From: Actinomycetota bacterium
Lineage (GTDB): Bacteria; Actinomycetota; Actinomycetes; Propionibacteriales; Nocardioidaceae
Direction of reading: 5' to 3'
Assembly (NCBI GenBank): GCA_049323155.1
Contig: JBMOMG010000164.1
Coordinates: forward strand, 28,358-92,357
DNA length: 64,000 nucleotides
How positions within the stretch are numbered: position 1 is the stretch's first letter; each line of letters starts with the position of its first letter. A program made the translations under genes and the position numbers. Below are positions 8,011-46,465 of this stretch, piece by piece. The notes beneath the pieces were generated by a model. The model saw nothing but the letters and a program-made list of their open reading frames with translations, was not told the DNA's origin and searched no databases.

Positions 8011-8427
8011 ATGACGAGCTATGCCAACGCTCTGGCTGAGATCGCTACGACCAGCCAGGACGAGCTCCGAACCGACCTCGAGTCGCTCCGCGCTCAGTCC
8101 GAGAGACTTCACGCCGAGGCCGCATCCGCGGACCGACGAGTGGCGATGCTGGAAGGACTGCTCGATCTCGCGAAATCCTCGACGGAGGGCCCGCATGTCT
8201 TCACGAGCGTTGAGGCTCCGCGGACACTTCACGAGGCGATGGCCGAGGTGTTGCGGACTGCGCCCGAGCGAATGATGCGGGCTGGCGATCTGGCTGCCGC
8301 GATCGAGCGACGCGGGCTTTACAGAATGCGAGACGGCCGGCCGGTTGAAGCGCAACAAATCCACGCTCGGGTCGGCCACTACGGGAACCTGTTCACCAAA
8401 GAAGGGACGTTCATCAAGCTCCAGTGA
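8011..8427 (+). CDS. Hypothetical protein, coiled-coil N-terminus plus HARE-HTH-like winged helix C-terminus
   Basis: Strong RBS (aaggag 7 nt before the ATG). The C-terminal TLHEAMAEVLRTAPERMMRAGDLAAAIERRGLYRMRDGRPVEAQQIHARVGHYGNLFTKEGTFIKL resembles the HARE-HTH pattern. The antisense ORF 7768..8502 is rejected. Confidence 0.5.
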   Translation: MTSYANALAEIATTSQDELRTDLESLRAQSERLHAEAASADRRVAMLEGLLDLAKSSTEGPHVFTSVEAPRTLHEAMAEVLRTAPERMMRAGDLAAAIERRGLYRMRDGRPVEAQQIHARVGHYGNLFTKEGTFIKLQ

Positions 8428-9306: not shown

Positions 9307-10164
9307 TTAGCGACCAATCGGCACTAGATCAATGTCAAGCGTAGCGAAGACCTTGTTTCCCGCCGTGAGAACAGCAATGCGTTTGGTATCGAGTCTGGCG
9401 GCTGCCTCGGCATGCCGCGGTGAACTTGGATCCAATAGATCGCTGATTCGTCGCCGTAGGTGCCTGTCGAGAGCATCCAACGCCCGGAGCACGGGGGAGA
9501 CAAGGGCGACGTAGTCATCGCTGTAGTTCCGGAGCGGCAAGACGCCAACAACGAAGTGTCCGTCCCGCGTGTACAGATACCCGGTTCGGAGGAACGTGGA
9601 AGTGTCCTTGATGGCATCGAACTGATCAGCGAAATTGTGCTCGGTGTCTGCCGACCGCACCAACGCAGGCCGGTCCAGAGCCACACGAAGCGCATCCGCA
9701 TGCGCATGCTCGGCTTGCGTCGTTGCTCCTAAGAGGACGTGTTGCACGTAGGAGAGGCCCGCTGCGGCGTAGCGGTTTAGCCACCCGTTGATCTGGTCCC
9801 AGCTCCAGATCTCGACCGAAAATGACTCACTCGGTAGGGAACGCACCTGCTCTTGAAGCCGAGCATCGCTCCTGGCAGTCGTAGCCACGATGAATCGATC
9901 GAGAGGCGGCCTGTATGACCTTGCTTTCGCGATCTCCTCAGTTACCGTGGCAACCTTCAAGGCTTTTCCGGTGAGCTTGCACTGGATGCCCACTTGCGTG
10001 CCGTCGTAGAGAGAAGCGCTAACGTCGACCCCCTGCTGCGACTGCCCTTTGCGACCGTTCAGCTCGACGGTTCTGGCGTTGAGCACGGGGGTGGCCAACT
10101 CCTCCACGAGCCGCTCAAATGCCTGCTCGTCGCTCGGGGGAGGGAAGTTGAGGTGAGGTGCCAT
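9307..10164 (-). CDS. Mrr-like (PD-(D/E)xK) restriction endonuclease domain protein with unknown C-terminal domain
   Basis: ORF 9307..10446 trimmed to ATG 10164. AFERLVEELATPVLNARTVELNGRKGQSQQGVDVSASLYDGTQVGIQCKLTGKALKV...RFIVATTA matches the Mrr catalytic-domain layout (FE..l, G.D, QCK). Confidence 0.6.
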   Translation of the reverse strand: MAPHLNFPPPSDEQAFERLVEELATPVLNARTVELNGRKGQSQQGVDVSASLYDGTQVGIQCKLTGKALKVATVTEEIAKARSYRPPLDRFIVATTARSDARLQEQVRSLPSESFSVEIWSWDQINGWLNRYAAAGLSYVQHVLLGATTQAEHAHADALRVALDRPALVRSADTEHNFADQFDAIKDTSTFLRTGYLYTRDGHFVVGVLPLRNYSDDYVALVSPVLRALDALDRHLRRRISDLLDPSSPRHAEAAARLDTKRIAVLTAGNKVFATLDIDLVPIGR

Positions 10165-10274
10165 GATGTTCCTCCGTGCGAAAAGAGGGTGGCCGTCTCC
10201 AGGGATCATAGTGAGCCCGAAGAGCTGTTCTGTAGCGGCGGAAAGACTCACCTCGCGGAAGGCGCGGATCGCGG

Positions 10275-10544
10275 CTATGACAGGACGCGCTTCGCCGCGC
10301 GCGCTCGACGAGCGAACGCGTCTCCGTACGCCACACCACCCGCGAGCAACGCTCCGATAACCGCGAAGACCTCGTAGAGCCACAGCGGTGGATCGACGAC
10401 GTAGATGGGCATCCAAGCACGCATTCCGTTTTCCAGCGTGGTGCAACTCGGTGGGTCTGGGCGGCTCAGCCAGACGATGGTCGCGCCGACAACTCCACCC
10501 ATGACCGCCGCAGCGATCGTCGAGAGTTTGCGCCTGTCGTGCAT
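10275..10544 (-). CDS. Small two-TM membrane protein upstream of the Mrr-like nuclease gene
   Basis: ORF 10275..10814 trimmed to ATG 10544: MHDRRKLSTIAAAVMGGVVGATIVWL ... LWLYEVFAVIGALLAGGVAY. Same strand as the nuclease gene, 110 bp upstream of it. Confidence 0.4.
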   Translation of the reverse strand: MHDRRKLSTIAAAVMGGVVGATIVWLSRPDPPSCTTLENGMRAWMPIYVVDPPLWLYEVFAVIGALLAGGVAYGDAFARRARAAKRVLS

Positions 10545-11590: not shown

Positions 11591-12397
11591 CTAGTTCTCT
11601 TCGTTGACGGCCGCGGGGACGCGGCCGAGCTCTCGGTTCTTCAGCCGGTAGGAGTCGCCCTTCAGGGCGATGACCTCGGCGTGGTGGACGAGCCGGTCGA
11701 TCATGGCTGCCGCGACGGTGTCGTCGCCGAAGACCTCGCCCCAGCGGGCGAAGTTCTTGTTCGACGTCACGATCAGGCTGGCGCGTTCGTAGCGGGATGA
11801 GACGAGCTGGAAGAACAGGTTGGCTGCCTCGGGCTCGAAGGGGATGTAGCCGACCTCGTCGATGACCAGCACCGGGTAGCGCACCAGCTTGCGGAGCTCG
11901 TCTTGCAGCCGGCCGGCGTGGTGGGCCTCGGCGAGCCGGTCGACCCACTGGGACGCGGTGGCGAACTGGACCCGGTGCCCGGCCTGACAGGCCCGGATGG
12001 CCAGACCGGTGGCCAGGTGTGTCTTGCCCGTGCCGGGCGGGCCGAGGAGGACGACGTTCTCCTTGCCGGCGACGAAATCCAGGGTGCCCAGGTGCGCGAT
12101 GGTCTCCCGCTTCAGGCCGCGGGCGTGGTCGTAGTCGAAGTCCTCCAAGCTCTTCCGGGCGGGGAACCGTGCGGCGCGGATCCGTCCCTCGCCGCCGTGG
12201 GTCTCACGCGCAGCGACCTCGCGTTGCAGGCAGGCGGCCAGGAACTCCTCATGGGTCCAGGACTCCTCCCGGGCACGCGCGGCCAGCCGCTCGACCGACT
12301 CCCGCAGCGTGGGTGCCTTCAACGCCCGGGTCAGGTACTCCAGCTCGCTGGTGACGTCCCGCCCGGTCTTCGGCTTCGTTGTCGACCTGGCGGCCAT
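11591..12397 (-). CDS. istB: IS21-family helper ATPase IstB
   Basis: ORF 11591..12577 trimmed to ATG 12397. Walker A VVLLGPPGTGKTHLATGLA and Walker B PVLVIDEVGY. TGATG overlap with the istA stop. Confidence 0.9.
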   Translation of the reverse strand: MAARSTTKPKTGRDVTSELEYLTRALKAPTLRESVERLAARAREESWTHEEFLAACLQREVAARETHGGEGRIRAARFPARKSLEDFDYDHARGLKRETIAHLGTLDFVAGKENVVLLGPPGTGKTHLATGLAIRACQAGHRVQFATASQWVDRLAEAHHAGRLQDELRKLVRYPVLVIDEVGYIPFEPEAANLFFQLVSSRYERASLIVTSNKNFARWGEVFGDDTVAAAMIDRLVHHAEVIALKGDSYRLKNRELGRVPAAVNEEN

Positions 12398-13649
12398 CAC
12401 GACACCTCCTCGTCGATGAGCCCGAGCGCTTGGTCGTAGAAGCCGAGTGATCGGATCTCGACCTCCTCGCCGGTGGTGGCGTCCGCGACCGGGCGCAGCA
12501 GGTCCGCGCGGCCGTGGCGCAGGTGCTTGGCAGCGACGGTGTGCTCGAAGTCGGTGATGGTCTGGTGCCGGGCCCACACCCGTGGGTGGTCGGCGACGAT
12601 CACTCCCTCACAGGTCACCCACACCCGGTCCAGGTCGGCATGGACCTCAATCCGCCCACCCACGACGGTGGGGTGGACGGAGTAGTCGTTGGAATCCAGA
12701 CGGACGTAGTGGTCGCGCGGCAGCCGCAGCGACTGGCGCCAACCGACCTCCGGTGCGACCGGCGGCAACGGGAGCATCGCGGCCCGGTCAGCTGCCACCC
12801 GGTCGCCAGGCGTGCAGCCAAGGGCCCGCATCTTCCGGGCATTCGCCTTCACGAAGAACCCGGCCAACTGGGTGTTGAAGTCCTGCGGGGACTCGAAGGT
12901 CCGTCCGGGCAGGAAGGACCGCTCGAGGTAGTCGTGGAGCCGCTCGAGCATGCCCTTGGCTTCGGGGTCGGCCGGCTTGCAGATGACGACCTTCGCGCCC
13001 AGCACCCCCCGGAACGCCTGGCAGTCGACGGTGAGTTCGGGTTGCCGGGCCCGCCACCGGCCGACGCGGCTTCCCCGTCCCACACCAGCGTCTTCGGCAC
13101 ACCGAGCAGCTGCTCGGACACCAGCCGCCACCAGCCTGCGTACAGGTCCCGCGCGTCGCGCGATGGGATCAACAGCCCGCCTGACCAGCGTGAGTAGCCG
13201 GTCACCGTCGTCATCACCGGCAGCCGCTTGGCAGTGCGGGTCTGGCCGTAACCGACAGGGATCTCGATGTCGGGAAACCAGAAGTCGAACTGCGCCAAAT
13301 CCCCGGCCTCATAGGTCGTGCGGGATGCCGGGTCCGGCGGAAGGTAGGCCGGCCGCAGCTCGCGGACCCGCTCCTTGAAGACCGTCATCCCGCGGTCCCA
13401 GCCCACCCGCTCGGCGATCACCGTGGCTGGCATCGTCGGGAACGCCTGCAGTTGCTCCCGGATCCGGGACTCGAACGCATCCACCGCCGACCCCGTCGGC
13501 TTCCGCACGTACTTCGGCGGCCCCTCGGATGCCAGCGCGGAGCGCACGGTATTCCGCGAAACGCCCAACGTCCTGGCGATCATCTTGATCGGCAACCCCT
13601 CGGTCTTGTGCAGCCGACGGATCTCAGCCCAATCCTCCACTGACAACAC
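12397..13649 (-). pseudogene. istA: IS21-family transposase IstA, split by one frameshift near 13065
   Basis: The N-terminal frame (12849..13649) is MLSVEDWAEIRRLHKTEGLPIKMIARTLGVSRNTVR...TLVWDGEAA. It continues in another frame (12397..13131) as VGRWRARQPELTVDCQAFRGVLGAKVVICKPADPEAKGMLERL.... Both halves are IstA-like. Confidence 0.75.
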
Positions 13650-13888
13650 TCCTCGTCCCCTGCCTCACGACTGGTGAGGACAGGGTCTCGGAGGGGGTCA
13701 GTTTTCGACCGTCGATAGGGGGTCAGTTTTCAGGCGCCGCCGACATCTGACGCCGACTAGCCACCTGTCCACGGAGCCCAGCGACGAAGTACCTGAATCA
13801 CAAGATTCGCGACGACCCCGTCCGGTCACGCTGCACCACCGCGCTGTCGGTAGGGGCGGCTACTGTCTACGCCCTGGAGGTATTGACC

Positions 13889-14404
13889 ATGACGGTGTTG
13901 GCGCGGACGGTGCTATTCGTTTCATCGTATGCGCCACTGCTGTTCCTATTCGCGCTTCTCGAGTCCTTCGGTAGCGGCTGGGCGAGCCGGGCGTGCGCGC
14001 TCGTAGGGGCTGCCAGCATCGTGGCTCTAGGCGTGATTTGGTGGCTGCTCGGGTCGAGGCTCCAGCCTGAGCGCGATCTATTCGAAGGTGCACGCAGCAG
14101 GGACTCCGACGTGATGGCATATGTCGTGAGCTATGTCGTGCCATTCGCCGCGGTCACCGACCAGAACAACAACGCGACGCGCCTTGCGCTGGCCATCTTC
14201 GCCGGGCTGATTGCAGTCCTCTACATCCGTTCAGCGGTGTACTACGTACACCCGCTCTTGTTGTTGGTCGGCCTGCACGTCTACGAGGCGAGCCGTCAGG
14301 GTGTTCCTGTCGTCGTTCTGTCCCGACAGCGATATCTTCGCCAGGCCTGCACCCTGCGGGTCATCAACATCGGACCCAACGTCTACGTGGAGAAGCCTGC
14401 ATGA
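13889..14404 (+). CDS. kwaA: Four-TM membrane protein, KwaA-like (Kiwa defence system candidate)
   Basis: GGAGG lies 8 nt upstream of ATG 13889. Four predicted TM helices in 171 aa. ATGA overlap with the downstream KwaB-like gene. Confidence 0.5.
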   Translation: MTVLARTVLFVSSYAPLLFLFALLESFGSGWASRACALVGAASIVALGVIWWLLGSRLQPERDLFEGARSRDSDVMAYVVSYVVPFAAVTDQNNNATRLALAIFAGLIAVLYIRSAVYYVHPLLLLVGLHVYEASRQGVPVVVLSRQRYLRQACTLRVINIGPNVYVEKPA

Positions 14405-15402
14405 GCACTCCCCGCGCCTCCGCGACGCTGCCAACTCCATCAAGCCCAGAAGAGGCCATGCGGCTGCTCGTCGCAATGCCTCCCCTTGCTGAGCTTGACA
14501 TGACGTTCACGGCTATCGGGCCGGACCAGGACGGCGCCACTTCGGGGTTCCGGATAAAATTGACGGTTGATGCCAAGGCGGCAATCTCCGAGCTGGCGCA
14601 GGCGACGCGGGAGCGACTTGAAGATGCCGCCTTGGTGCGATACGGGCCGGCAGTCCTGATCCCGCCCCAGCATTGGATGCACGTGAATCAGCTCGAGGTC
14701 GCCACTCTTACGGCCATCGAGGACGTCGTCCGCAAGCAGGACCTCAAGCCCTTTGACGGTAAATCCGACTTCGCGTCCACCATTAAGATGGTGGCAGCTC
14801 AGTTCGTCGCTGCAGGACACGTTCCAGTGACCTTCTATCGGGTCGCCGACTCTCTCCTCCAACTCAGGAAGTCGAGGATGCTCGGTCTCGTGCAGGAGGG
14901 CGACGTCTTTGACCGACTCGAGCCGGCAGATGTGCTGCTGTTGCGACCTGAGTTCGAGGTGGTCGTCGTCGGCGGCTATGCATTCTTCGGCAAGAAGGCC
15001 ACGTTCGAGCGCGCCTTCGGTTTCCTCGAGGAACTTCGCAAGGAGAGCCTGACTACCTTCAACGCCGTGACTCGGAATCTGCGGGTGGTCGGCATGGAAG
15101 CCCTTCGCGCCGCCTGCACCAGCCAGCCCCAGATGATGGCAAAGATGGCGTCGATTAGGCGCAGCATGGAGGAAGATCCCGGCTACGCGAAGGCGATGAC
15201 GATGCCGAAACTCATCGCGTACATCGAGAAACATCCGCACGTCGATATCGAAATTATCGGGACTGGGAACGGCCGAGAACTCGTCTTCGACCCGAAGCCC
15301 ACGCGACGGTTCCAGATCGTCAAGTTGCTCGATGACGACTTCCTTCGGTCCGTCCTCACCGAGCGTGAGTACGAGGCGGGTTCAAAGATCCAGTCGATCT
15401 GA
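14401..15402 (+). CDS. kwaB: DUF4868/KwaB-like protein (Kiwa defence system candidate)
   Basis: 333 aa. Segments LRKSRMLGLV, VLLLRPEFEVVVVGGYAFFGKKATFE, LIAYIEKHPHV and FQIVKLLDDDFLRSVLTEREYEAGSK match my recollection of conserved KwaB blocks. Size and gene order fit Kiwa. Confidence 0.55.
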   Translation: MSTPRASATLPTPSSPEEAMRLLVAMPPLAELDMTFTAIGPDQDGATSGFRIKLTVDAKAAISELAQATRERLEDAALVRYGPAVLIPPQHWMHVNQLEVATLTAIEDVVRKQDLKPFDGKSDFASTIKMVAAQFVAAGHVPVTFYRVADSLLQLRKSRMLGLVQEGDVFDRLEPADVLLLRPEFEVVVVGGYAFFGKKATFERAFGFLEELRKESLTTFNAVTRNLRVVGMEALRAACTSQPQMMAKMASIRRSMEEDPGYAKAMTMPKLIAYIEKHPHVDIEIIGTGNGRELVFDPKPTRRFQIVKLLDDDFLRSVLTEREYEAGSKIQSI

Positions 15403-15505
15403 AACACATTCGCCGAACGACGGCACCCGTATGTGCTGTAGAGGCGGCGGAAATAGGCTGCGGAGATTCTCGGGATGCTTGCGCGCAGTGAGGGAGGATT
15501 ACCTT

Positions 15506-18500
15506 GTGAGCGGACTTCGACCCCAGGCTGAAGCCTTCATCCGATTCCGCATTCTCGAGATGACGGAGCGGAACGAGCACCATCGGTTCGAGGAACTCGC
15601 GACGCTCGTCGCGCAGAAGCGCGTCAGCTCGAACATCCTCATCGCCACGGGCCCGGTCAGCTCGAAGGGTGACCAGCAGCGCGACGCCGAGACTTTCAAG
15701 ACGCGCCTGCCCAACGAGCTGCCGCACGCAGCAGGCTTCGCGGCGGCAGCCTCGACGACACCGTGGGTGGTCGCATGCACCCTGCAGGAGGCCGGGCTCA
15801 AGCAGAAGGTTCTCGACGATCTGGCCGGTATCTGCGCAGCGGGTGCCGCCCCCGTTGAGCACGTCGCCTATTTCAGCGCCCACGCGGTCTCCGAGGGCAT
15901 CACCCACGAGCTCCAGAAGACCGCGCGCGAAACGCACGACGTCTCGTTGGACATCTTCTGCGCGTCGGACATCGCAAGGTTTCTCGCTCAGGACGACTTG
16001 ATTTGGGCTGCGCAGCACTATCTGGAACTTCCGTCGAACCTCGTGCCGCCGCCCGAGAGCGAGCCAGCACCAAAGTGGTACGCAGAGCTCTTGGACGGGC
16101 TACGGAAGAACAGGGGACCCGCGGCGCTGACACCTGCGGTGCAAGGTGGCGTGACCCAAGGCTTGCGGCACGCGACCTGGGACGAGGAAACTAACGCAGA
16201 TCTGCCTGAGTGGATCGACTTCATGGGGGCGTTCCTCGCGGACTCCGAGGACGGCGAAGACACCGAGCTCGTGTTCCGCGCCTGCTACGAGATGGCTGTC
16301 GCCACGTTCCGTGGCCTGGGAACTGCGGCCGCTATCGAGGACCTGGTGCGGCGAGCTGTGACGTACGCGTGCTCATGCGACCAGCCGAGCGTCCTCGACG
16401 ACACCGTCACCCTCGTCTCGTACTGGGGTGTCATGTGGTCCCAGGGTGTCGCGACGGCCGAGGCCACTGAGATCAGTGGTGCGCTCACGAACGTGCGTGA
16501 GCACGCCGCGGCTCTGATGGATGACACAGATGCCGACACCCACCCGGTTCGAGCAGCGAGCTTGACGGGCGTTCTCGCCTACTCGTACCTGATTCCGGAC
16601 TGGGCCGAGGCGGAGAAGAGCCGGGGTAAGCCTGAGGCGAAGGCGGTCGCGGGGAACGTGGGTGTCAAGCTGACCGAGCATGACGTCGACACCTCGCTCT
16701 TGGACGAGTCCGACTTCGAGGGGCTCGCAGACGCGATGGCATATCTATCGCAGCTTGTTGACCTGTTGCCGCGGGCGCGCCCATACTCGGTCAGCGAGCT
16801 GGCGCGGGTATTCGACATGTTCGCGCCGTTGGCTTCGGCGCATCCTGAATACTTGAAGGTCCGCGACGGACTCGACGCGGCGACTGCGGAGGTCGTCGGC
16901 GACGCTGCGGCCGCGGAACGGTGCCGGGACCGGGCTACCGCGTTCATGAGGGCTCACAAGCCGCTACATGCTCTCCGTGAGTTGCACGAAGCGAAGGTGA
17001 AGTGGTTCAACGGCGAGACGCTGTGCGGGTCGGTGCTGACCATGCGGTTCATCGCGAAGATCTACGCCGACCTTCGCCTGACCTACGCCGCCAAGATGTA
17101 CGCCTGCACCGCGGCTGCGGTGGCGCTGTCTGCCGGCGACGACGAGGTGAAGCCGCAGGCCGCGAAGGCGCTACTTGAGGCGGCTGGGTACGCGCAGCAG
17201 GCCGGGACGTGGGTTGATGCCGCTCGTTTGACCGAGATTGCGCTGTTGGCGCGAGCCCAACTGCTCCCGGAGCCGTTCGACTTGGACAAGCACTCCGACC
17301 TGGCCCACCACAACCAGAACGCTCTCATGGAGCTCACAGCCATCCGGACGTACTGGCCCGAACTCGTGACCCTGTTCGAGCGAGCGCATGACGTCACCAA
17401 CTGGTACGAGGACCTCGTCGAGGTCATCGACGTGATGGGCGGCGACGGGTTCAAGCTCACCGAGAAGGAGTTCTCTGCCCGGGCCGCCGAGCAGCTCACC
17501 GGTCCACTCCTCAGCGACGTCGGTCTGCGGCGCCTCGTCGAGTTCTCAGCCCTCGGCGTTCGCTGGTCGTTCGAGTTCGACAACGACCGAACCACGGTCC
17601 TAGGAGCTGAAGCGCTGTGCGCAACCCTGCAGGTCCTGCTCGCCGACATCGCACTTCACGAACCTGTACTCGTCAGCACCAGCGTCCGCGTTCAGGTCGC
17701 GATGACCGAGCAGACCGGGCGCGACGGTTACAACGTAGAGATCGACGACAGCAGCTGGCACATCACTGCGGAAGCAATCATCTCCTCCGACTTCTCAGAC
17801 CAGGACTCCCGTGCTCCCGGCGTGCTGTCCATATGCTTCCAGCTCCTTCACGCCGTCCACCTGCGGCCGCCGGCCGAACTTCAGGACCTCATCGAACCCT
17901 TGTTCAGGCGCGGCCTGACTCACAAGGTCGCGGTCGGTCGGCCCTATGAGGAAACCGCCGGGCTCCTCGACGACGACCACTACACCAGGCTGGCTGCGGC
18001 GACTCGCCCCGCCGGCGCGGATGACTACCAGCCAACACCGGCGGAACCTCTCAGGGCATCGACGGCCCCCGGCCCGGGATACGACCGCGACGAGGTAATC
18101 GAAGCTATCCGGGAGCGATACCGAGTCGCCCAGGAAAGCCTCCGGTTTACCCTGCCTGCCCTTCTTGCCGACACCGGCAAGCGAGCATCCCTTGAACGCC
18201 TCCGAGCCGACGGGTGGCTGGACTGGCAGATCGTCTCCATCCTGGCGAACATCGCGCTCAACTTCCGGATGCACCGCGATGGCCTGAAGCCGCAGTTTGC
18301 GACTCCGCAGCAAGCCATGGCGCTGATCCGGGAACAGGAGAGCGATGCCGCGCAGGCCGTCCCTCTGGACTGGTTCGACGCGGATGGGCTCGCGCTCAAC
18401 ACGTTTGCCGCGCCGGTAACGGCGGCCACAGGATTCGGTATGCGCCCATGGCAGGACGCACCAGGGGAGGAACGGCTGCGCGACCTCCTTATCCGCCGGT

Positions 18501-18604
18501 ATGGATACGGCTCCGACGACGTGCCACACACCGACCTGCTCGACAGCATCGACGAGCAGGGACGGCTCCGACCCTTCCTCGATCCGGACAACTCTGGCAA
18601 TTGA
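15506..18604 (+). CDS. Large (1032 aa) hypothetical protein: degenerate Mrr-like N-terminal domain plus long alpha-helical region, no NTPase motif seen
   Basis: ORF 15332..18604 trimmed to GTG 15506, with GGGAGG 8 nt upstream. N-terminus HHRFEELATLVAQKRVSSNILIATGPVSSKGDQQRDAE...PWVVACT parallels the nuclease domain at 9307..10164, but has ACT where QCK is expected. Confidence 0.7.
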   Translation: MSGLRPQAEAFIRFRILEMTERNEHHRFEELATLVAQKRVSSNILIATGPVSSKGDQQRDAETFKTRLPNELPHAAGFAAAASTTPWVVACTLQEAGLKQKVLDDLAGICAAGAAPVEHVAYFSAHAVSEGITHELQKTARETHDVSLDIFCASDIARFLAQDDLIWAAQHYLELPSNLVPPPESEPAPKWYAELLDGLRKNRGPAALTPAVQGGVTQGLRHATWDEETNADLPEWIDFMGAFLADSEDGEDTELVFRACYEMAVATFRGLGTAAAIEDLVRRAVTYACSCDQPSVLDDTVTLVSYWGVMWSQGVATAEATEISGALTNVREHAAALMDDTDADTHPVRAASLTGVLAYSYLIPDWAEAEKSRGKPEAKAVAGNVGVKLTEHDVDTSLLDESDFEGLADAMAYLSQLVDLLPRARPYSVSELARVFDMFAPLASAHPEYLKVRDGLDAATAEVVGDAAAAERCRDRATAFMRAHKPLHALRELHEAKVKWFNGETLCGSVLTMRFIAKIYADLRLTYAAKMYACTAAAVALSAGDDEVKPQAAKALLEAAGYAQQAGTWVDAARLTEIALLARAQLLPEPFDLDKHSDLAHHNQNALMELTAIRTYWPELVTLFERAHDVTNWYEDLVEVIDVMGGDGFKLTEKEFSARAAEQLTGPLLSDVGLRRLVEFSALGVRWSFEFDNDRTTVLGAEALCATLQVLLADIALHEPVLVSTSVRVQVAMTEQTGRDGYNVEIDDSSWHITAEAIISSDFSDQDSRAPGVLSICFQLLHAVHLRPPAELQDLIEPLFRRGLTHKVAVGRPYEETAGLLDDDHYTRLAAATRPAGADDYQPTPAEPLRASTAPGPGYDRDEVIEAIRERYRVAQESLRFTLPALLADTGKRASLERLRADGWLDWQIVSILANIALNFRMHRDGLKPQFATPQQAMALIREQESDAAQAVPLDWFDADGLALNTFAAPVTAATGFGMRPWQDAPGEERLRDLLIRRYGYGSDDVPHTDLLDSIDEQGRLRPFLDPDNSGN

Positions 18605-19026
18605 GGCCAGTAGCAAGCGGGCCCACACTCCGCGCACGGCATCGGGAGCTCGGGTGAGTACGCCCGAGACGCGACGCGCTTGAGGCCGTTTGTGCCAGCG
18701 GATCGGGTCACTGGGTGGTCAGCGGGTTCGTCGCCGTGGGCTGTAGGAGGCGTCCGCAGGTAGAGGCCGCCAGTGAGCAATGCGTAGGTCATTCTGGGCT
18801 ACTAGACGATTCCCGTAGGGCCGGTGTCTGGCCAGACTCGGTCCAGGTGCTCGGCGGGTTCGCTCTCTATTGGGCTGCCCACCCGTCTTGCGGGTGTGGC
18901 TCACTATCGGTCTGCAGCCCGCCGGGCGCCGCTGACCAGGCGTGGCTCAAGAAGGGACTGCCCTGCTCGTAGTAGCAATGCCCACCTCGCCGTCCACATC
19001 GGTACGAGTACAGGCGGGAGCAGCAC

Positions 19027-20238
19027 ATGGAGCAGGTCACCATCGGGGTCGATCCCCACAAGCTGTCGGCGACGATCGAGGTCGTCGACCAGCAGGAAGA
19101 GTTGCTTGGTTCTGGTCGGTTCACCACTGACCGAGCCGGCTACAAGGCCATGCGGACCTACGCGAAGGCATGGCCGAACCGGGTCTGGGCGGTTGAGGGC
19201 GCCAACGGTGTCGGACGACCGCTGGCGCAGCGGCTGCTCGAGGACGGCGAGCAGGTGGTCGACGTGCCAGCCAAGCTCGCCGCCCGGATCCGGCTCTTCG
19301 ACACCGGTCACAACCGCAAGACCGACGCCAGGGACGCCCACTCGATCGCGATCGTCGCAGTCCGAACCAAGACCCTGCGGGTGCTGCAGGTCGACGGCGA
19401 GCTCGAGGCGCTGCGTGTGCTCACCGACCGAAGAGAAGCACTCACCCGACGACGGGTCCAAACGGTCGACCGGCTGCAGGCTCTGTTGGCTGAACTCCTG
19501 CCAGGACAGGCCGAACGTGACATCACCACCGGCCAGGCCAAGGCCATGCTTGCGTCGGTCCGGCCGCGTGACGTTGCCGGGAAGACCCGTCGCCGCATCG
19601 CCGCCGACGAGCTCGCCGACCTGATCGCCGTCGAGGTGAAGATCAAGAAGGCGACCGCTGAGGTCAAGGCGATCGTGCTCGCCCGCGGCTCGACGCTGAT
19701 GGACATCCACGGCGTCGGGCCTGTGGTGGCCGCACGGATCCTGGCCGACGTCGGCGACGTTGCTCGCTTCGCCGACCGCAACCGGTTCGCCTCCTGGACC
19801 GGCACCGCGCCCCTCGATGCGTCCTCCGGGGAGCAGAACCGTCACCGGCTGTCGCGGGCGGGGAACCGCCGGATGAACCACATGATCCACATCGCCGCGG
19901 TCACCCAGCTGCGCCTCGACACCGACGGCCGGACCTACTACCGACGCAAACGGACGGAGGGCAAGAAGTCCCTGGAGGCACTGCGCTGTCTCAAGCGCAA
20001 GATCTCCGACGCCATCTATCGACAGCTCGTCGCAGACGCTCAGCGCCTCGCCGGCGCAGACTCTGAGACGGGTCCGGGAGGGCACTGCGGGGCGTCTCAA
20101 GAATCCAGCGCGGTCGACCTGCCCCCGCACATCGACACTTCGGATCAGCCACTTCCCGGACCCGCAGGTCCGACGCTACGCCCGCCATCGACGACCCGGA
20201 AGGCCCGCCGCGACAGAGACCTCGCAGCGACCGGTTGA
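19027..20238 (+). CDS. IS110-family transposase/recombinase (element ends not resolved)
   Basis: MEQVTIGVDPHKLSATIEVVD...VWAVEGANGVGRPLAQRLLEDGEQVVDVPAKLAAR...KTDARDAHSIA is a typical IS110 DEDD N-terminal domain. The C-terminal HGVGPVVAARILADVGDVARF segment is also typical. Confidence 0.9.
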   Translation: MEQVTIGVDPHKLSATIEVVDQQEELLGSGRFTTDRAGYKAMRTYAKAWPNRVWAVEGANGVGRPLAQRLLEDGEQVVDVPAKLAARIRLFDTGHNRKTDARDAHSIAIVAVRTKTLRVLQVDGELEALRVLTDRREALTRRRVQTVDRLQALLAELLPGQAERDITTGQAKAMLASVRPRDVAGKTRRRIAADELADLIAVEVKIKKATAEVKAIVLARGSTLMDIHGVGPVVAARILADVGDVARFADRNRFASWTGTAPLDASSGEQNRHRLSRAGNRRMNHMIHIAAVTQLRLDTDGRTYYRRKRTEGKKSLEALRCLKRKISDAIYRQLVADAQRLAGADSETGPGGHCGASQESSAVDLPPHIDTSDQPLPGPAGPTLRPPSTTRKARRDRDLAATG

Positions 20239-21290: not shown

Positions 21291-22138
21291 CGCTCCTCGG
21301 TCCTTGCGACCGCTTCGTCGGCGAGTCGCATCCGTCGTTCAGCGTCGGCAAGGAACGAGACAGTCTCGCCGTCCTCGATGGCCACCCAGACCCCGTCGTC
21401 TCCGCGGACCCAGTAGGCCTCGGCGTAGGCAACCGGTGAGCCGGGGAGGTCTCCGAGCATGCGCGCCTCGCCCGACGCGAGCGCTGCCTGCAAGGTCATG
21501 TCATCCATGCCTGTTCTCTCCTTCTGTTGGTTGCGCTCCGCGGCCGCAGCCACGGCCGCTGGGTCAGCACCGAGAGGCTCAACGTGATCGTGGCCTACGA
21601 AGTCGACGAAGGCTGCCTCGTCGTCAACCCGGCGGTCGTCGTACAGGGTCTTGATGCGTTGTTTGTGCTCCCCCTCGCAGGCGATGTTCCAGCCGCCGGC
21701 CCCGACTCTGCGCAGGAACTCCGGCAGCCACCGGCCGTGCCAGTCCGCGGCCGCGGTCAACGGCGCCCCCTTCTCGGTGTAGGCCTCCCGCCAGGCCAGC
21801 CAGAGCGCCGTCAGCTCCTCGACGAGTTCGGGGTGCCGCCACCAGCACAGAGGGATCTGGCGCGCGAGCGGGTAGCGGCCACGGACCCAGCCGACCCAGT
21901 CCGCGAGGGCTTCCCACAGCTTCTCCGCGTCTTCCGGGGACAGCGTGTGCCATACGTACGGCCCGGCGGAACCCAAAGAGATCGAAGCGTCATCCTCCTC
22001 CTGGATCTGCGCCACGACGGCCGAGAGCTGGTAGATCTGCTCATCGTGCAGCGCTGCGACGGAGGCGAGCCCGGGCACCGAGTCGGTGTCCATCAGCTCC
22101 CCGGTCCTCGGGTCCACGATCTCGGGAATCTCGTTCAC
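21287..22138 (-). CDS. DUF4913-like conjugation-associated protein
   Basis: 283 aa, GTGA overlap with the coupling protein gene. Position and sequence type (PLCWWRHPELVEELTALWLAWREAY) match the gene usually found next to the T4CP in actinobacterial ICEs. Confidence 0.55.
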   Translation of the reverse strand: MNEIPEIVDPRTGELMDTDSVPGLASVAALHDEQIYQLSAVVAQIQEEDDASISLGSAGPYVWHTLSPEDAEKLWEALADWVGWVRGRYPLARQIPLCWWRHPELVEELTALWLAWREAYTEKGAPLTAAADWHGRWLPEFLRRVGAGGWNIACEGEHKQRIKTLYDDRRVDDEAAFVDFVGHDHVEPLGADPAAVAAAAERNQQKERTGMDDMTLQAALASGEARMLGDLPGSPVAYAEAYWVRGDDGVWVAIEDGETVSFLADAERRMRLADEAVARTEER

Positions 22139-23877
22139 GAGACCTCCCCGAGCCCGGTCCGCACGGAGGTGACAGGGGCCGGCCCTGCGGACAGCCGCTT
22201 CAGGTCACGGTCGGCGAACCACCGCCGCAGCCGGACTCGAGCCGGCGGAAGGTTCTGGTACAGCACCACGGCCTCGCCGTCGGGGAGCTGCTGGAGCAGG
22301 TGCAGCGGAGCGAGCGACTCGCGTTGCTCCGACGAGCTCTTCGAGCGTCGGCCGTCCGGACCGGTCTGCGACGACCCGAGCGAGACCCTGGTGTGTCCGA
22401 GCAGGTCGGAGAAGTACCGCAGCGTCTCCACGTCCCCAACCCCGGGCAGCAGCATCCGCATCTTCGCGTTGGACACGACCGTGCGGGCGACGTCGCGACC
22501 GCCGAAGAGATGCTCGATCTGAGCGATGTCGTGGTAGGCGAGCAGCAGCTGGACGCCGTTGCCGCGACCGGTCGTGAGCAGGTGCGGCAGCCTCGGGTAG
22601 CGGAACACGTTGCCGGCCTCGTCCAACGCGAGCAACAGACGGGGCCAGACGGGCCCACCCGACTCGGCGGCTTGCTGCTCAGCCTCGTGCACGATCGAGG
22701 AGATCAGGGCGGTGAAGTACGGCGTGAACCTGTCGACCTCGGACTGCGGTGTCACCATCAGCAGCGTTGCGGGCCGCTCCCCGAAGAGGTCCGCTGCCGT
22801 GAAGTCACTGTGTCGACATGACTCGAGGACCGTTGGGCGGTTGTAGGTGTCGGCGAGACCGAAGGCTGTGAACATCACCGAGCCCTTGCCCTCCTCGTGG
22901 ATCCGCCACGTGCTGCGGTACTCGCGCAGGACCTCGACGTAGCCGTGCTCGGCGAGGATCTGCTCCACCTGGTCGCGGGCCAGCTCTCCGTCGTACGCCC
23001 ACTCCACGAATCCCTCGATCCCCCGGCCCGACAAGGCCGCGGCGAGGAGGAGTCCCTTGAGGTACTTCCGCGCCTGGGCATTCCACGGGCGCGACCTCGG
23101 ATCGCCGGTCATTCCGGAGGAGTCGACCAGCCACGCGGCCATCCGGTCCGCGGCGTCCGCGTCGGTGGCGTAGTCGACCGGGGACCACGCCGATTGCTCG
23201 ATGCCCGGTGCCCCACCTGGGGCGATCACCCACACCGGGCCCAGCGCGGAGCGTGCCGCCATCACTGGCAGGAGGTCTTGTGGCTTGGCGGTTGTCATCA
23301 CGACGCTGCCCTGCCACTCGAGCACGTTGGGGATGATCAGCCCGACGGTCTTGCCCGCGCCGTTGGGACCGAACACGACCGAGGAGACGCAGTCTTCTCC
23401 TGCGAGGCAGCGGCCGGTGGACTTGCTGCGGCCGGCGACGAGCCGGTGCGGCCGCGCGGTGGGGTCGTCGGGCACCACCATGGGCCGTTCGTCGCGGCCG
23501 GTGGCCCAGTGTGCGTCGTTGTCCTTCTTCGTACGACGGGCGAGCATCTTCCGCGCTCCGAACACGAGGACACCTACCGACGCAATGAGGAGGCCGACCA
23601 CGGCCCAGAACAGCCACACCGGCGCGAACGGGACCGACCCGCCGGAGGCCGCGGCCCACGCCGTGGATGGGGAGGCTCCGTCGAGCAGTTCGGCCAGGAA
23701 CGTGCTCGCTCCCCCGGTGCCACTGCCGTGCCAGCCACCGCCGGCGACGGACACCGCGACCAGCGCGCTTACCCAGAGCACGGCACCGGAGCTGACGAGC
23801 GCCCCGAGGACGAGGAAGCCCAGCCACAGCCAGGGCTCCTCGTCGATGGAGAAGGCGCGCGACGATGGCTGGCTCAT
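22135..23877 (-). CDS. Type IV coupling protein (VirD4/TraG-like)
   Basis: N-terminal TM helices. Walker A VVFGPNGAGKTVGLIIPN, Walker B-like LLLALDEAGN. Length 580 aa. Confidence 0.85.
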   Translation of the reverse strand: MSQPSSRAFSIDEEPWLWLGFLVLGALVSSGAVLWVSALVAVSVAGGGWHGSGTGGASTFLAELLDGASPSTAWAAASGGSVPFAPVWLFWAVVGLLIASVGVLVFGARKMLARRTKKDNDAHWATGRDERPMVVPDDPTARPHRLVAGRSKSTGRCLAGEDCVSSVVFGPNGAGKTVGLIIPNVLEWQGSVVMTTAKPQDLLPVMAARSALGPVWVIAPGGAPGIEQSAWSPVDYATDADAADRMAAWLVDSSGMTGDPRSRPWNAQARKYLKGLLLAAALSGRGIEGFVEWAYDGELARDQVEQILAEHGYVEVLREYRSTWRIHEEGKGSVMFTAFGLADTYNRPTVLESCRHSDFTAADLFGERPATLLMVTPQSEVDRFTPYFTALISSIVHEAEQQAAESGGPVWPRLLLALDEAGNVFRYPRLPHLLTTGRGNGVQLLLAYHDIAQIEHLFGGRDVARTVVSNAKMRMLLPGVGDVETLRYFSDLLGHTRVSLGSSQTGPDGRRSKSSSEQRESLAPLHLLQQLPDGEAVVLYQNLPPARVRLRRWFADRDLKRLSAGPAPVTSVRTGLGEVS

Positions 23878-25382
23878 CGCATCCTCAGGTCGGTGTCGAT
23901 GATTGACTGCTCAGTGCCGGACAGGACGTGGTCGACGACGAAGGACCGGCGGCCGATCTTCCACAGCCCACGGCCGACCGGCAGCCCCGGCAGCAGGCCG
24001 GCCTCGACGTCGGTGAGACCGAGTGCTGAGGCGGTTGCGGAGACCTGGTCGGTTTCCTGGCCGTAGATGATCCGGGTGGAACAGTCCGCGAGGAGCCCCC
24101 GCGCGAGCGCCACTGCCTCGCTGCCGGCGTCCCCGACGGCGCCGAGGTCGCTGAGCCGGTGCACGACGGCAAGGTTGGAGATCCCCCAGGCCCGGGAAAG
24201 CTTCCAGTGCGCCTGCATCCGGCGCACCAGGGCGGGGACGCGCATCATCCGCCAGGCCTCGTCGTACACCACCAGGCGACGCCCGGAGCCCGGGTCGCTG
24301 ATCGCTGACTCCATCCAAGCCGAAGCGCATGACATCAACAGGGCGATGGCGGTGTCGTCGCCGGCCAGCCGAGAGGTGTCGACAACCTGGATCGGGGCGT
24401 CGAAGTCCAGCGGATGGGTGGTGGGCCCGTCGAAGAGGCCCGCGAGGTCGCCGACGACGAGTCGACGCAGCTCGAGCGTCGCGTCGCGTGAGACCGCAGC
24501 GAGCTCGTCGCCGCCTCGCATGCCGATGGTGTGTGCCATCTCGTCGGTGGGTCGCATCAGGACATCGACGACCTGTGGCAGCACCGGGACGGCCTGCCGG
24601 GTCGCGCTCGCGTCGGCTCGTGAGACCTCGTCGAGCGCGAGATAGAGCGCGTTGCGTTCCACCGGCGTGAGCCTGCGACCGAGCCCGGTCTCCGTGAGTG
24701 CCTGCAACAAGGTGATCCGGCGCGAACGGATCTCGCTGTGCCAGGCGCCGTCGTCGATGTCGTCCGGTCTGCAACCGGCGTCGAGCGGGTTGATGCGGGT
24801 GGGCAGGCCGCGGCCGAGCTGCAAGGGCTCTACGCCGAGCGCTCGTGCGACAACGCCCCACTCCCCCTTGGGGTCGCCGGGGACATAGGTCCGTACGCCG
24901 AACGCTGCAAGCCGGTAGGCCAGAGTCTTCGCCAATGCCGACTTGCCTCGACCGAGCACACCGGCGAGGAGGATATTGGCGTTCGTGATGACCTGCTGCT
25001 GGTAGAGATGCCACGGGTCGTAGACGAACGATGCGCCCGATCCGGCCTCCCGGCCGATGTAGACACCGTCGGAGCCCAGGCCGGTCTCGACGATGAACGG
25101 GTAGATCGCCTGCAGGTTCGCTGTCGTCGCGCGGTGGACCGGCAGCCGCATCGGGAGGAGCACCCGACCGGAGTGCTTGCGGCGGTCGCCACGGGCTGGA
25201 CTGTAGTCGGCTCGCTCGGCCTCTCGACGCTCGCGGGCGAGTTCGCGTCGGCGGGTACGACGGGCACGGCCGGTCAGCGCCCGCTTACCTGAGCTCGTCG
25301 GACGGTTGCCCAGCTCCCACGGCAGTGGGTCGTCGGTGATCCTGCTGGGCCGGGCAGTGACGTTCGGAGGCTCGCCGCTCAT
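23874..25382 (-). CDS. VirB4-like conjugative transfer ATPase
   Basis: Walker A LLAGVLGRGKSALAKTL and Walker B RLVVYDEAWRMM. ATGA overlaps on both sides. Confidence 0.8.
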   Translation of the reverse strand: MSGEPPNVTARPSRITDDPLPWELGNRPTSSGKRALTGRARRTRRRELARERREAERADYSPARGDRRKHSGRVLLPMRLPVHRATTANLQAIYPFIVETGLGSDGVYIGREAGSGASFVYDPWHLYQQQVITNANILLAGVLGRGKSALAKTLAYRLAAFGVRTYVPGDPKGEWGVVARALGVEPLQLGRGLPTRINPLDAGCRPDDIDDGAWHSEIRSRRITLLQALTETGLGRRLTPVERNALYLALDEVSRADASATRQAVPVLPQVVDVLMRPTDEMAHTIGMRGGDELAAVSRDATLELRRLVVGDLAGLFDGPTTHPLDFDAPIQVVDTSRLAGDDTAIALLMSCASAWMESAISDPGSGRRLVVYDEAWRMMRVPALVRRMQAHWKLSRAWGISNLAVVHRLSDLGAVGDAGSEAVALARGLLADCSTRIIYGQETDQVSATASALGLTDVEAGLLPGLPVGRGLWKIGRRSFVVDHVLSGTEQSIIDTDLRMR

Positions 25383-26869
25383 CGGACACCCCGCGCCAGG
25401 GGGAGAGCGCCGGCGATGAACGCCTGGTCCTGTTCGCCGTACACCCGTCGCACCTCGAGCACGCTGCGTACCGCGGCTTGTTCGACCTGGGCGCAGGCGT
25501 CCTCGAGCTCGGCCTCGGTCTCTGCAGTGACAGTGACGTAGCCGGTGAACCGGTACTCAACGTGTCCGTGGACCAGCTCGCGCTCTCGCCGCAGCAGGGC
25601 GGCATGCTCCTCGTCATCGAGGGCGGTCTCGATCTGGCCGAGCTTCTCGCGCTGCGCCTCTTCAGTGAGCTTCTGCACCTTGGCGCTGCGCACCTCACGG
25701 AACGACTGCGACGGCGCGATCGGCTCCGCAGTGACCGAGATGGTCCGGCGTACACCGCCGAGGACCAGCAGCGGGTAGAGCCAAGCAGCCTGAACCTGCA
25801 TCCGTGGCCAGGCCGCGACCCAGTAGACAGCGTGGAAGCCGCTATCCGTCCGGTAGTGCGTGAAGGTCGACCTCGCGGCCATCGGGCCCGCGGCTTGAAG
25901 CTGGACCCCGCGGCCAAGACCGGTCTCCGCCCGCTTGTCGATGCCGTCGGCCGCCGCCGGGTCGAACTGGGTCCTGACCAGCCGCCCGAGATCGCGGGGA
26001 CCGAGCCAGCCCACCACGGTGACGTCGCAACGCCGCAGACCTGCCTCGACCCAGGTGAGCTCGTCGATCAGCACCTTCGCCGTGCCGTCTGGGCCTCCGC
26101 CGGCTGCGCGGATCGCGCGGCGGCAGCGTCGCTCGTCGATGGAGACGACGACGTAGGTCTCGTGCCGGGTGGCCGCAGGGCCGGCCTCGGCGATGAGCTG
26201 CTCGTAGTCGGCCGCGCTCGCTGCGCCACGATGCCCCTTGGCCCGCCACCAGTCGTCGAGCCCGCGGCCGGAGTCCGGGATAGTGCGCTCGAGCCACTGG
26301 ATCGCAGCCAGCCTGGTGCCCTCCTGTCCCAGCTGGGCGAGCAGGGAGCCCCAAGCGGATACGCGCTCCTGCTGGGTGGACCGGTCCGCGAGCGGGTACG
26401 CCGGCGCGACCACCTCGAGCACGGCGGTCCACCGCGGCCCCTGTCTCATCACGGCGACCTCGCGATGCCTGGTGTCGAAGGACCGGATCCGGACCCGGCC
26501 GCCGCTGCCAGGAAGCCTGAGGTCGCGCGGTCCGGACTGTGGGGTGTGCATCGCCCATGGTCCGCCCAGATACGTGCCCTGGTCAGTGATCCGCCCATGG
26601 ACGTAGTTGGCGATCGGTCGTACCCAGTCGACGACCGGTCTGCCCTGGACGGGGAACAGTGCGACGAACGCGAGCGCCATGCAGACGATCGCACCCACGA
26701 GTACCCCGTACGCGGCCGAGCTGAGCAAGCCGAGCAGGAGTGCGGTGACACCCGCTCCGAGCAGCAGGAGCTGCGGCAGTCGCAGGCCTAGCAGGAGTGC
26801 TCGGCGGTCACGCGGACCGAAGGAGTAGGTCGGTTCGGATTCGGCGACAGTGGTCATGGCACCTCTCAT
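25379..26869 (-). CDS. SCO6880-family-like conjugation membrane protein
   Basis: 496 aa with two N-terminal TM helices. Conserved position between the VirB4-like and polytopic membrane genes. Confidence 0.55.
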   Translation of the reverse strand: MRGAMTTVAESEPTYSFGPRDRRALLLGLRLPQLLLLGAGVTALLLGLLSSAAYGVLVGAIVCMALAFVALFPVQGRPVVDWVRPIANYVHGRITDQGTYLGGPWAMHTPQSGPRDLRLPGSGGRVRIRSFDTRHREVAVMRQGPRWTAVLEVVAPAYPLADRSTQQERVSAWGSLLAQLGQEGTRLAAIQWLERTIPDSGRGLDDWWRAKGHRGAASAADYEQLIAEAGPAATRHETYVVVSIDERRCRRAIRAAGGGPDGTAKVLIDELTWVEAGLRRCDVTVVGWLGPRDLGRLVRTQFDPAAADGIDKRAETGLGRGVQLQAAGPMAARSTFTHYRTDSGFHAVYWVAAWPRMQVQAAWLYPLLVLGGVRRTISVTAEPIAPSQSFREVRSAKVQKLTEEAQREKLGQIETALDDEEHAALLRRERELVHGHVEYRFTGYVTVTAETEAELEDACAQVEQAAVRSVLEVRRVYGEQDQAFIAGALPLARGVR

Positions 26870-42069: not shown

Positions 42070-42208
42070 GTTCGCACATCTGACTTAGTGCTTGTCGCAA
42101 AGACCCGCCGAATCTTCGTCCCCATGGTGTGCGGAGCCTGAGGTGCTGCACCATGCCGTCCGCCCCGGAGGGTGATCGGATGTCGAATCCGATGCTCGGG
42201 TTCCGACC

Positions 42209-46246: not shown

Positions 46247-46465
46247 GTGATGGCGATGACGACGAGTATCCCCGCGGCTCCCGGGAGTCGGGTCCACCTC
46301 ACCATCGCCGACGTCTGCGCAGAGCTCGGCATCGCACGATCGACGTTCTACGACTGGCGGGCAGCCAAGAAGGCGCCCCGCTGCATCAAGCTCCCCAACG
46401 GTGACGTGCGCATCCGGCGCACCGACCTGGAGCGGTGGCTGAAGAGTCTCGAGGATGTCGCGTGA
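46247..46465 (+). CDS. xis: Excisionase / MerR-like HTH DNA-binding protein
   Basis: LTIADVCAELGIARSTFYDWRAAKKAPRCIKLPNGDVRIRRTDLERWL. Directly precedes and overlaps the integrase. Confidence 0.8.
   Translation: MMAMTTSIPAAPGSRVHLTIADVCAELGIARSTFYDWRAAKKAPRCIKLPNGDVRIRRTDLERWLKSLEDVA

Follow-up and report, generated by a model that had tools for sequence, protein, structure and literature searches.

A candidate stand-alone sensor-effector without an NTPase, encoded next to Kiwa on a probable actinobacterial conjugative element

Avs/bNACHT-type STAND NTPases such as Avs2 and Avs4 combine an N-terminal effector of the PD-(D/E)xK fold, i.e. an Mrr-like or a Cap4 head, with a long TPR-type region. 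The PD-(D/E)xK heads of Avs proteins need oligomerisation. Upx is likewise a single large protein with a PD-(D/E)xK nuclease and a sensor, here without a STAND NTPase (Gao 2020; Evans et al. 2026, PMC13601566); it is activated by a phage protein, which leads to toxicity, and is broadly distributed in bacteria and archaea (PMC13601566). Dsr1 and Dsr2 are single proteins of ~1000 aa as well, in which a small enzymatic head at the N-terminus precedes a long sensor of helical repeats and an NTPase is missing; Dsr1 has its sensor in common with Avs7, so that the same sensor module is used by STAND as well as non-STAND proteins (PMC13581612). Here we describe a gene at 15506–18604 (+ strand) of a 64 000-nucleotide stretch of DNA from a member of the Nocardioidaceae (Actinomycetota; assembly GCA_049323155.1, contig JBMOMG010000164.1, positions 28 358 to 92 357), hereafter called the window. 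The gene encodes a protein of 1032 aa and lies directly downstream of the Kiwa genes kwaA and kwaB. The family to which this protein belongs would resemble Avs, Upx and Dsr1 in its working but appears to belong to none of them. With a probability of about 55 %, we read the gene as an autonomous, horizontally mobile, single-gene candidate sensor-effector directed against phages or other mobile genetic elements, which is carried as cargo of a conjugative element and has no nucleoside triphosphate (NTP)-driven switch.

The likeness to the Avs/bNACHT-type proteins is the most detailed, as the window protein has the same order of an N-terminal head with a predicted PD-(D/E)xK fold and a long TPR-type region, its head itself occurs on NB-ARC, NACHT and nSTAND proteins and has the Avs4 nuclease as one of its best structural matches, and the genes are likewise found in defence islands. 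However, the window protein has no STAND NTPase, no Walker A motif and no PADLOC match to Avs, and its body adds an alpha/beta domain and a conserved C-terminal domain, neither of which is a TPR. In contrast to the Upx nuclease, which is C-terminal and has an intact ExK (PMC13601566), the head of the window protein is N-terminal and ExK-less, and the mostly helical body of the window protein contrasts with the Upx sensor, which is reported to be rich in beta structure and to work by beta-augmentation (PMC13601566). Since no PADLOC family, in a set expected to include Upx, matched any of 30 family members even at E≤1, there is probably no sequence relation to Upx. The head of Dsr1/Dsr2 is a SIR2 NADase, whereas that of the window protein shows a predicted restriction endonuclease (REase) fold, and neither the PADLOC Dsr families nor PDB sequences gave a match to the window family that would relate it to the bilobed TPR sensor of Avs7 and Dsr1.

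The open reading frame (ORF) starts with GTG, encodes 1032 aa plus stop and is preceded by GGGAGG 9 nt upstream. It is complete, it represents an unnamed family of ~1000-aa proteins whose members align with it over the full length, and it is a real gene. The ribosome-binding site (RBS), the GTG start and a CTRCGGAG motif are kept in three relatives (L078, L079 and L082; 78–91 % identical). The 5′ leader (15450..15505, + strand) contains the RBS at 15491–15496, and the DNA homology with L078 begins at its first position, 15450; it is a possible promoter region of the gene's own. The stop codon of kwaB (15402) lies on the same strand and is separated from the gene by 103 bp. As no terminator-like site was found on the + strand between the two genes, transcriptional read-through from kwaB is possible. 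An in-frame ATG at 15332 was rejected as an alternative start, since it overlaps kwaB and the N-termini of the homologues align with the GTG instead. The coordinates, the gap and the conserved RBS and start thus bear out the original prediction, made from the sequence of the window before any database search, which had placed the gene on the same strand 103 bp past the kwaB stop and behind a good RBS. The GC content of the window is 0.66.

As proposed with that prediction, the structure was modelled and searched with Foldseek, which yielded REase-fold matches for the head and a TPR-like solenoid behind it. The full-length AlphaFold2 model, built from 110 sequences, reached a pLDDT of 88.1 and a pTM of 0.85. 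It divides the protein into an N-terminal alpha/beta head with a putative effector function and PD-(D/E)xK fold (aa 1–185, 15506..16060), a TPR-like alpha-solenoid (aa 186–665, 16061..17500), an alpha/beta domain of six strands and two long helices (aa 666–790, 17501..17875) and a helical tail (aa 791–1032, 17876..18601), all encoded on the + strand. The solenoid is read as TPR-like because the full-length model matched only TPR proteins in the PDB, such as LGN/Pins and APC/C subunits (E 1e-5 to 1e-3, probability 1.0); in the viral library, only TPR or Sel1 repeat matches were obtained. For aa 666–1032, neither the full-length Foldseek search nor the PDB sequences gave a fold match. Therefore, the original description of the 850 aa behind the head as helical repeats holds for aa 186–665, and aa 791–1032 are helical, but aa 666–790 are alpha/beta. 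Its statement that Walker motifs are missing stands, as Walker A is absent from 109 of 110 family members and the 1032-aa protein has no Pfam NTPase match. Conserved residues of the C-terminal part include D671, G673, R676, W687, E702 and Q709 in aa 666–790, which are conserved in the protein's own family and in a second, Cap4-headed family (see below), and, in aa 791–1032, K807, Y859, the GWLDWQ motif (18212–18229) and RRYxxxxDDVPHxD.

The head was also modelled in isolation with a deeper alignment (121 sequences, pLDDT 91.6), residues 46–83, the stretch with the highest conservation, having been of low confidence in the first model. In this model, the order of elements is alpha-alpha-beta(44–46)-beta(61–63)-beta(87–92)-alpha-beta(119–124)-alpha-beta(147–151)-alpha, and the predicted head thus has the alpha-beta-beta-beta-alpha-beta core of the REase-like PD-(D/E)xK fold. 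In the PDB, Foldseek matched it best to MspJI (E 5e-3, probability 0.98) and to the N-terminal nuclease of Avs4 (probability 0.98–0.99, TM 0.49), followed by Nt.BspD6I, VC1899, Mus81-Eme1, Card1, FokI, EcoO109I and SgrAI. Compared with the type IV nuclease domains of the Mrr/MspJI kind (Pfam Mrr_cat), the head shows the same predicted fold and element order, a GDxxxD-like motif before beta2, a hydrophobic beta3 and a tail resembling ‘FS..A...A...v.Ldi.dg..ia.lLa’. It differs in having A-C-T in place of QxK, in its extra invariant positions (HHxFE, E62, Q94, K101xxxD105 and H134) and in the lack of a Pfam match: neither Mrr_cat nor Cap4_nuclease nor any other Pfam family matched the protein or 53 N-domains of the family, even at E≤5. 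The head had originally been described as sharing its layout with the Mrr-like ORF at 9307 of the window. This particular relation was not recovered by hhalign (probability 0.2 %, in a low-confidence alignment that pairs VVACT of the head with IQCK of the 9307–10446 ORF), while the fold search does support a PD-(D/E)xK head.

When 64 bacterial and archaeal sequences are compared, no region of the protein is conserved as strongly as the head, in which 17 residues are invariant (H25, H26, E29, N43, A47, G49, P50, V51, G55, D56, Q57, R59, D60, E62, K101, D105 and H134). H25, H26 and E29 belong to an HHRFE motif on helix 2 (15578..15592, + strand), in which E29 occupies the position that the acidic residue of alpha1 has in REase-like folds. 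The GPVSSKGDQQRDAE motif (15650..15691, + strand) holds the invariant G49, P50, V51, G55, D56, Q57, R59, D60 and E62, and its D60, at the start of beta2 in the model, would be the counterpart of the ‘PD’ aspartate in GDgGiD motifs of the Mrr type. On the predicted beta3, where Mrr-type enzymes have QxK, the protein reads W-V-V-A90-C91-T92; the A-C-T triplet (15773..15781, + strand), already spotted in the original prediction at the place of QCK, is near-invariant in the family. Close to it lie Q94 (15785–15787, + strand; ≥92 % conserved) and, within the first helix turns after beta3, K101-x-x-x-D105 (15806..15820, + strand), with both residues invariant, followed further on by the invariant H134 (15905–15907, + strand). 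K101 and D105 might be a catalytic lysine and acid that have moved from their usual place, with E62 and Q94 as possible extra acid and amide residues. An XPF/Mus81-like reading was also considered, as K101xxxD105 resembles ERKxxxD and Mus81-Eme1 is a weak Foldseek match, but was left as a mere idea because K101 is located nine residues past beta3 and position 99 is not acidic. The head had been called ‘degenerate’, which is right in that the canonical QxK is gone. However, no other part of the protein is as strongly constrained, and the same region also serves as the effector of STAND NTPases; this degree of conservation makes it look remodelled under strong selection rather than decayed.

Evidence for a modular build comes from both ends of the protein. 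When a head-only profile was searched against 1.84 billion representatives, 1371 proteins were found at E≤1e-3 and 531 at E≤1e-30, and among the top 150 matches three longer proteins carry the head on a STAND NTPase with repeats, i.e. on nSTAND5/AAA_16 plus TPR_12 (P0359), on NB-ARC plus five TPR_12 (P0374, located beside a type I restriction-modification (R-M) system) and on NACHT (P0394). These heads are 40–44 % identical to that of the window protein and keep all of its motifs, and their position at the N-terminus of STAND NTPases suggests that the head is an effector module as in Avs- or NLR-like receptors. Conversely, in Hymenobacter and Fibrella plasmids tblastn matched just residues ~400–1010 of the window protein. 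The Hymenobacter protein WP_139926185 (1249 aa, annotated as ‘dsDNA nuclease domain-containing protein’) starts with a Pfam Cap4_nuclease head (PF14130, E 4.9e-8, above the cut-off), while its body aligns with the family profile from residue 187 to ~1000 of the window protein (hhalign probability 100 %, E 4.7e-42). It belongs to a Cap4-headed sister family of Bacteroidota with at least 147 clusters, many of them with PF14130, which shares the body over ~800–830 residues and a nuclease-fold N-terminal head, is plasmid-borne near toxin-antitoxin systems and type IV coupling protein (T4CP) genes and is likewise uncharacterised. Its head is unrelated in sequence to that of the window protein: hhalign found no similarity between the two, and the window protein has no PF14130 match. 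As the bodies are homologous from residue 187 onwards and the heads are unrelated, the swap occurred exactly at the domain boundary. In both families, 28 body residues are conserved, among them the polar H494, K497, K530, D671, R676, E702, Q709, K807, D906 and D1004 as well as W687, G903 and W907.

The family is large and patchily spread. An initial search gave 123 full-length homologues of ~1000–1060 aa, every one annotated as ‘hypothetical’ and none with a Pfam domain. A scan of GTDB yielded 172 relatives, mostly from Actinomycetota (many of them Streptomyces, in which the gene is scattered across species) and aligning end to end down to 26 % identity, with others in Methanosarcina, Bathyarchaeia, Blastocatellia and Anaerolineae. 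A profile built from distant members extended this to at least 815 clusters (90 % identity), including Methanobacterium, Chloroflexia, Dehalococcoidia and Pyrinomonadaceae, so that the family ranges over Actinomycetota, Chloroflexota, Acidobacteriota, alphaproteobacterial plasmids and Archaea. Plasmid-borne copies were found in Streptomyces, Mycobacterium gordonae, Bradyrhizobium, Agrobacterium, Ensifer and Blastomonas, while a megablast of the plasmid collection with the DNA of the locus itself gave no match, and no family copy was found in IMG/VR or in GenBank phages. The protein had been said to fit no defence family that could be named, and this agrees with the searches: Pfam, PADLOC, NCBIfam and PDB sequences gave no usable match to the 1032-aa protein (NCBIfam a single sub-threshold chance match), the family and PDB-sequence libraries nothing usable for 53 N-domains and 53 C-terminal regions, and a literature search by accession number and architecture keywords no paper describing the family. 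The tblastn matches in four loci (L029, L040, L054 and L073) contain in-frame stop codons, and these copies are therefore probably pseudogenised. Pseudogenised copies are common for costly defence genes.

The neighbourhood survey proposed with the original prediction, which asked for co-occurrence with kwaAB and for defence islands, found no consistent kwaAB and frequent defence or mobile-element neighbours. In raw counts, taken without a genomic background, the 115 immediate (±1) neighbours include AriA- or AAA_21-type ATPases (4), MADS mad2 (3) and mad3 (4), PDC-S06 (3), NACHT (3), Avs2 (2), Abi_2 (2), KAP NTPases (2) and NaeI (1), besides methyltransferases, integrases and DDE transposases; Wadjet, R-M systems, AbiE and conjugation genes are also typical across the loci. 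For example, the closest relative (P0001, 91 % identity) has a KAP NTPase alongside, the second (P0002, 81 %) lies inside a conjugative element and is convergent with the T4CP gene, and the third (P0003, 78 %, Nocardioides panzhihuensis) is accompanied by an integrase, a DUF4365 protein and a YobI-type ATPase. In Leifsonia soli, the gene is found between Wadjet JetABCD and an integrase with an MmeI-type R-M and SNF2/PLD genes; in Streptomyces europaeiscabiei, transposases, UvrD and a Cap4-CTD7 protein are found with it in a chromosome arm; in Chloroflexia, it adjoins an integrase and conjugation genes; and in Nocardia, it follows transposase fragments. Neither clustering of the ±5 neighbours nor phmmer of overlapping neighbours revealed a partner gene recurring at any position, only clade-local pairs. 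The gene moves as a self-contained module. Together with the missing conserved neighbour, the defence and mobile-element context and the exchange of both head and body, this supports the ‘stand-alone sensor-effector’ that the original prediction had offered as one of two options.

How such a protein would work can be modelled on the PD-(D/E)xK heads of Avs and on the NTPase-less Upx and Dsr1 (PMC13601566, PMC13581612). The ~850-residue body, i.e. the TPR-like solenoid, the alpha/beta domain and the helical tail, would keep the N-terminal head inactive until it detects a sign of infection, for which a phage protein is the likeliest candidate. Binding would then release or oligomerise the heads, with no NTPase switch involved, and the heads would cut nucleic acid and thereby end the infection, a response that the cell itself would probably not survive. 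In this scheme we infer the defence function, the nuclease activity of the head, the sensing of a protein and the oligomerisation, and the defence role is deduced from the genomic context.

Several points weigh against a stand-alone defence sensor-effector. Every Foldseek E-value of the head is above 1e-3, even though the list is uniformly of the REase fold; the canonical (Q/E)xK of beta3 is missing family-wide, and a nuclease activity is therefore putative; and aa 666–1032 could hold an activity of their own, since many invariant polar residues are unusual for a pure sensor surface. Furthermore, the share of defence genes among the neighbours is a raw frequency that is not set against a genomic background, the Methanobacterium copies are located among housekeeping genes, and the absence from phage and viral collections, though neutral for defence, removes one supporting line. 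The first three points could be accounted for by a catalytically dead head, the protein then being a sensor, a scaffold or a nucleic-acid-binding factor that acts via a partner or via a C-terminal activity. The A-C-T replacement throughout the family, the weak E-values for the fold and the invariant polar body residues shared with the Cap4-headed sister family (H494 to D1004, as named above) would all fit this explanation. It is, however, difficult to reconcile with a head that exceeds the rest of the protein in conservation and contains the invariant cluster E29, D56, D60, E62, K101, D105 and H134, that holds the effector position of STAND NTPases and whose place is taken by a genuine Cap4 nuclease in the sister family; moreover, there is no conserved partner gene through which it might act. 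We regard a dead head as unlikely, although it is the alternative that survives best.

Another alternative is that the protein is not immune at all but serves the mobile element, e.g. in maintenance, entry exclusion or addiction, or has an unrelated cellular role. In this direction point the repeated location on conjugative elements and plasmids, often right beside the T4CP gene, the Methanobacterium copies between polD, nrdD and redox genes, and the lack of a phage-borne copy. On the other hand, many chromosomal copies are found in defence islands without conjugation genes, the distribution across bacteria and archaea is patchy, and the modularity of effector plus sensor is typical of immune receptors, so that a non-immune role appears rather improbable to us.

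The original prediction had correctly recognised Kiwa upstream of the gene, as KwaA (13883–14404; PADLOC 4e-20) and KwaB (14401–15402; Pfam KwaB 1e-12, PADLOC 7e-20) are both genuine. Its second option, an accessory third gene of a Kiwa variant, was not supported. According to tblastn of the window KwaA and KwaB against 77 related loci, kwaAB adjoins the large gene in 2 of 78 loci, i.e. in the window and in L068, and on opposite sides. Kiwa is absent from the three nearest relatives, P0001 (91 %), P0002 (81 %) and P0003 (78 %), and the nucleotide homology between the window and its nearest relatives covers 15450–18799 at most, i.e. the ORF with a 56-bp leader and a 195-bp trailer. It thus starts past the kwaB stop, and no homology was seen across the junction of kwaB and the large gene. 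Considering the rarity of the arrangement, the opposite order and the nearest relatives without Kiwa, the large gene is not part of Kiwa, and the adjacency is incidental and reflects the usual clustering of defence genes. Although the shared strand, the short gap without a + strand terminator-like site and the directly adjacent kwaAB-like genes of L068 would suit a third component working with KwaA and KwaB, e.g. as an effector downstream of KwaB, this is very improbable in view of the two adjacencies in opposite order with KwaB proteins just 46 % identical over 94 aa, the DNA homology ending 56 bp upstream of the start codon in relatives that have no Kiwa, and the position of kwaAB and the large gene between IS21 and IS110 elements, which suggests piecemeal assembly. 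Kiwa of the window is therefore an ordinary two-gene system, which corrects a tempting mis-annotation.

In L068 (10001–14703), the KwaA- and KwaB-like genes are located directly downstream of the large gene, i.e. in the reverse of the window order. The large gene of this locus was split by the ORF caller and may carry a frameshift.

If the stand-alone sensor-effector is a working defence, Pfam, NCBIfam and PADLOC v2 have missed a large family (at least 815 clusters, to which the Cap4-headed sister family adds at least 147), which would be most relevant for Actinomycetota, among them Streptomyces, Nocardia and the plasmids of Mycobacterium, as well as for Archaea, in which, to our knowledge, few defence systems have been tested. 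It would also provide a natural experiment on nuclease control, with one head occurring with and without a STAND NTPase and one body with two unrelated heads, and the head would be a case of active-site relocation in the PD-(D/E)xK fold. It is tempting to go further and to speculate, at somewhat less than even odds, that the protein is the founding example of a widespread NTPase-free superfamily of bacterial and archaeal immune receptors, in which a conserved body of ~830 residues with TPR, alpha/beta and helical parts would both sense infection and itself license interchangeable nuclease heads. One of these heads would be a PD-(D/E)xK variant not described before, with the (Q/E)xK of beta3 lost and an active site rebuilt from E62, Q94, K101, D105 and H134, and would also be used by STAND NTPases. 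If so, the same effector could be driven with or without an NTP switch.

The surroundings of the gene, positions 3000–48000 of the window, resemble an actinobacterial integrative and conjugative element, with the defence genes in its cargo region. Conjugation and mobility functions are represented by a TrwC relaxase (4469–7747), a T4CP (22135–23877), a VirB4-like gene (23874–25382), a TrbL/VirB6-like gene (26866–28230), an FtsK/SpoIIIE-family protein of 1662 aa (32527–37515) and a tyrosine integrase (46435–47856). The block of kwaAB and the large gene is bracketed by an IS21-type pair on one side (11591–13649; IstB intact, the IstA-like ORF of 266 aa with weak rve and helix-turn-helix (HTH) matches and possibly truncated) and an IS110-family transposase on the other (19027–20238), which suggests that the block was assembled or moved by insertion sequence activity. 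An HNH_2 ORF is located at 30710–31612. The ORF of 379 aa at 9307–10446 (− strand), with a HARE-HTH ORF (8011–8427) nearby, has only weak PADLOC matches, to the Avs2 N-terminus and to LmuA (E ~1e-4), and may represent a further small defence gene of the nuclease type; in the related element L079, a comparable position is taken by a 335-aa gene labelled ‘Mrr_cat (weak)’. In the region 40936–43157, a C5 cytosine DNA methylase (40936–42069) is followed by a 342-aa ORF without a Pfam match, and the two could represent an orphan methylase or an R-M pair.

Some features of the other loci, in six of which the coordinates of the large gene were taken from tblastn, may be added. In unrelated conjugative elements, the gene is located directly beside the T4CP gene and convergent with it (L079–L081, at 8001–11156 in L079, and L090, at 3564–6941). 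This neighbour of the T4CP gene is a member of the family in Actinomycetota and the Cap4-headed sister gene in a Fibrella plasmid, and the site next to the T4CP gene may be a hotspot for cargo. A single context is unlike an island, namely that of the two Methanobacterium loci (L083/L084, 9154–12943), where the gene lies between polD/nrdD and redox genes and an unannotated 256-aa gene precedes it by 77 bp. In the Hymenobacter plasmids, a conserved hypothetical gene of 416 aa abuts or overlaps the Cap4-headed gene upstream (L088, 3363–4613; L089, 3063–4313), and the sister family may be a two-gene system there; an HTH-HipA toxin-antitoxin pair is found after the Cap4-headed gene. A gene of ~332 aa without a Pfam or PADLOC match follows the large gene on the same strand at a distance of 136–139 bp in L001, L002, L003 and L020 (+1 gene, ~13260–14255) and in L092 (13271–14269), and a gene of 824–856 aa lies upstream in three of these loci; the ~332-aa gene represents clade-local synteny among 4–5 close relatives and not a family-wide partner. 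Finally, the member in L048 (5316–17946) is located between two same-strand ORFs of 1513 and 1634 aa, with gaps of 65 and 29 bp, and relatives of the 1634-aa protein are found near the large gene in L017 and L025.

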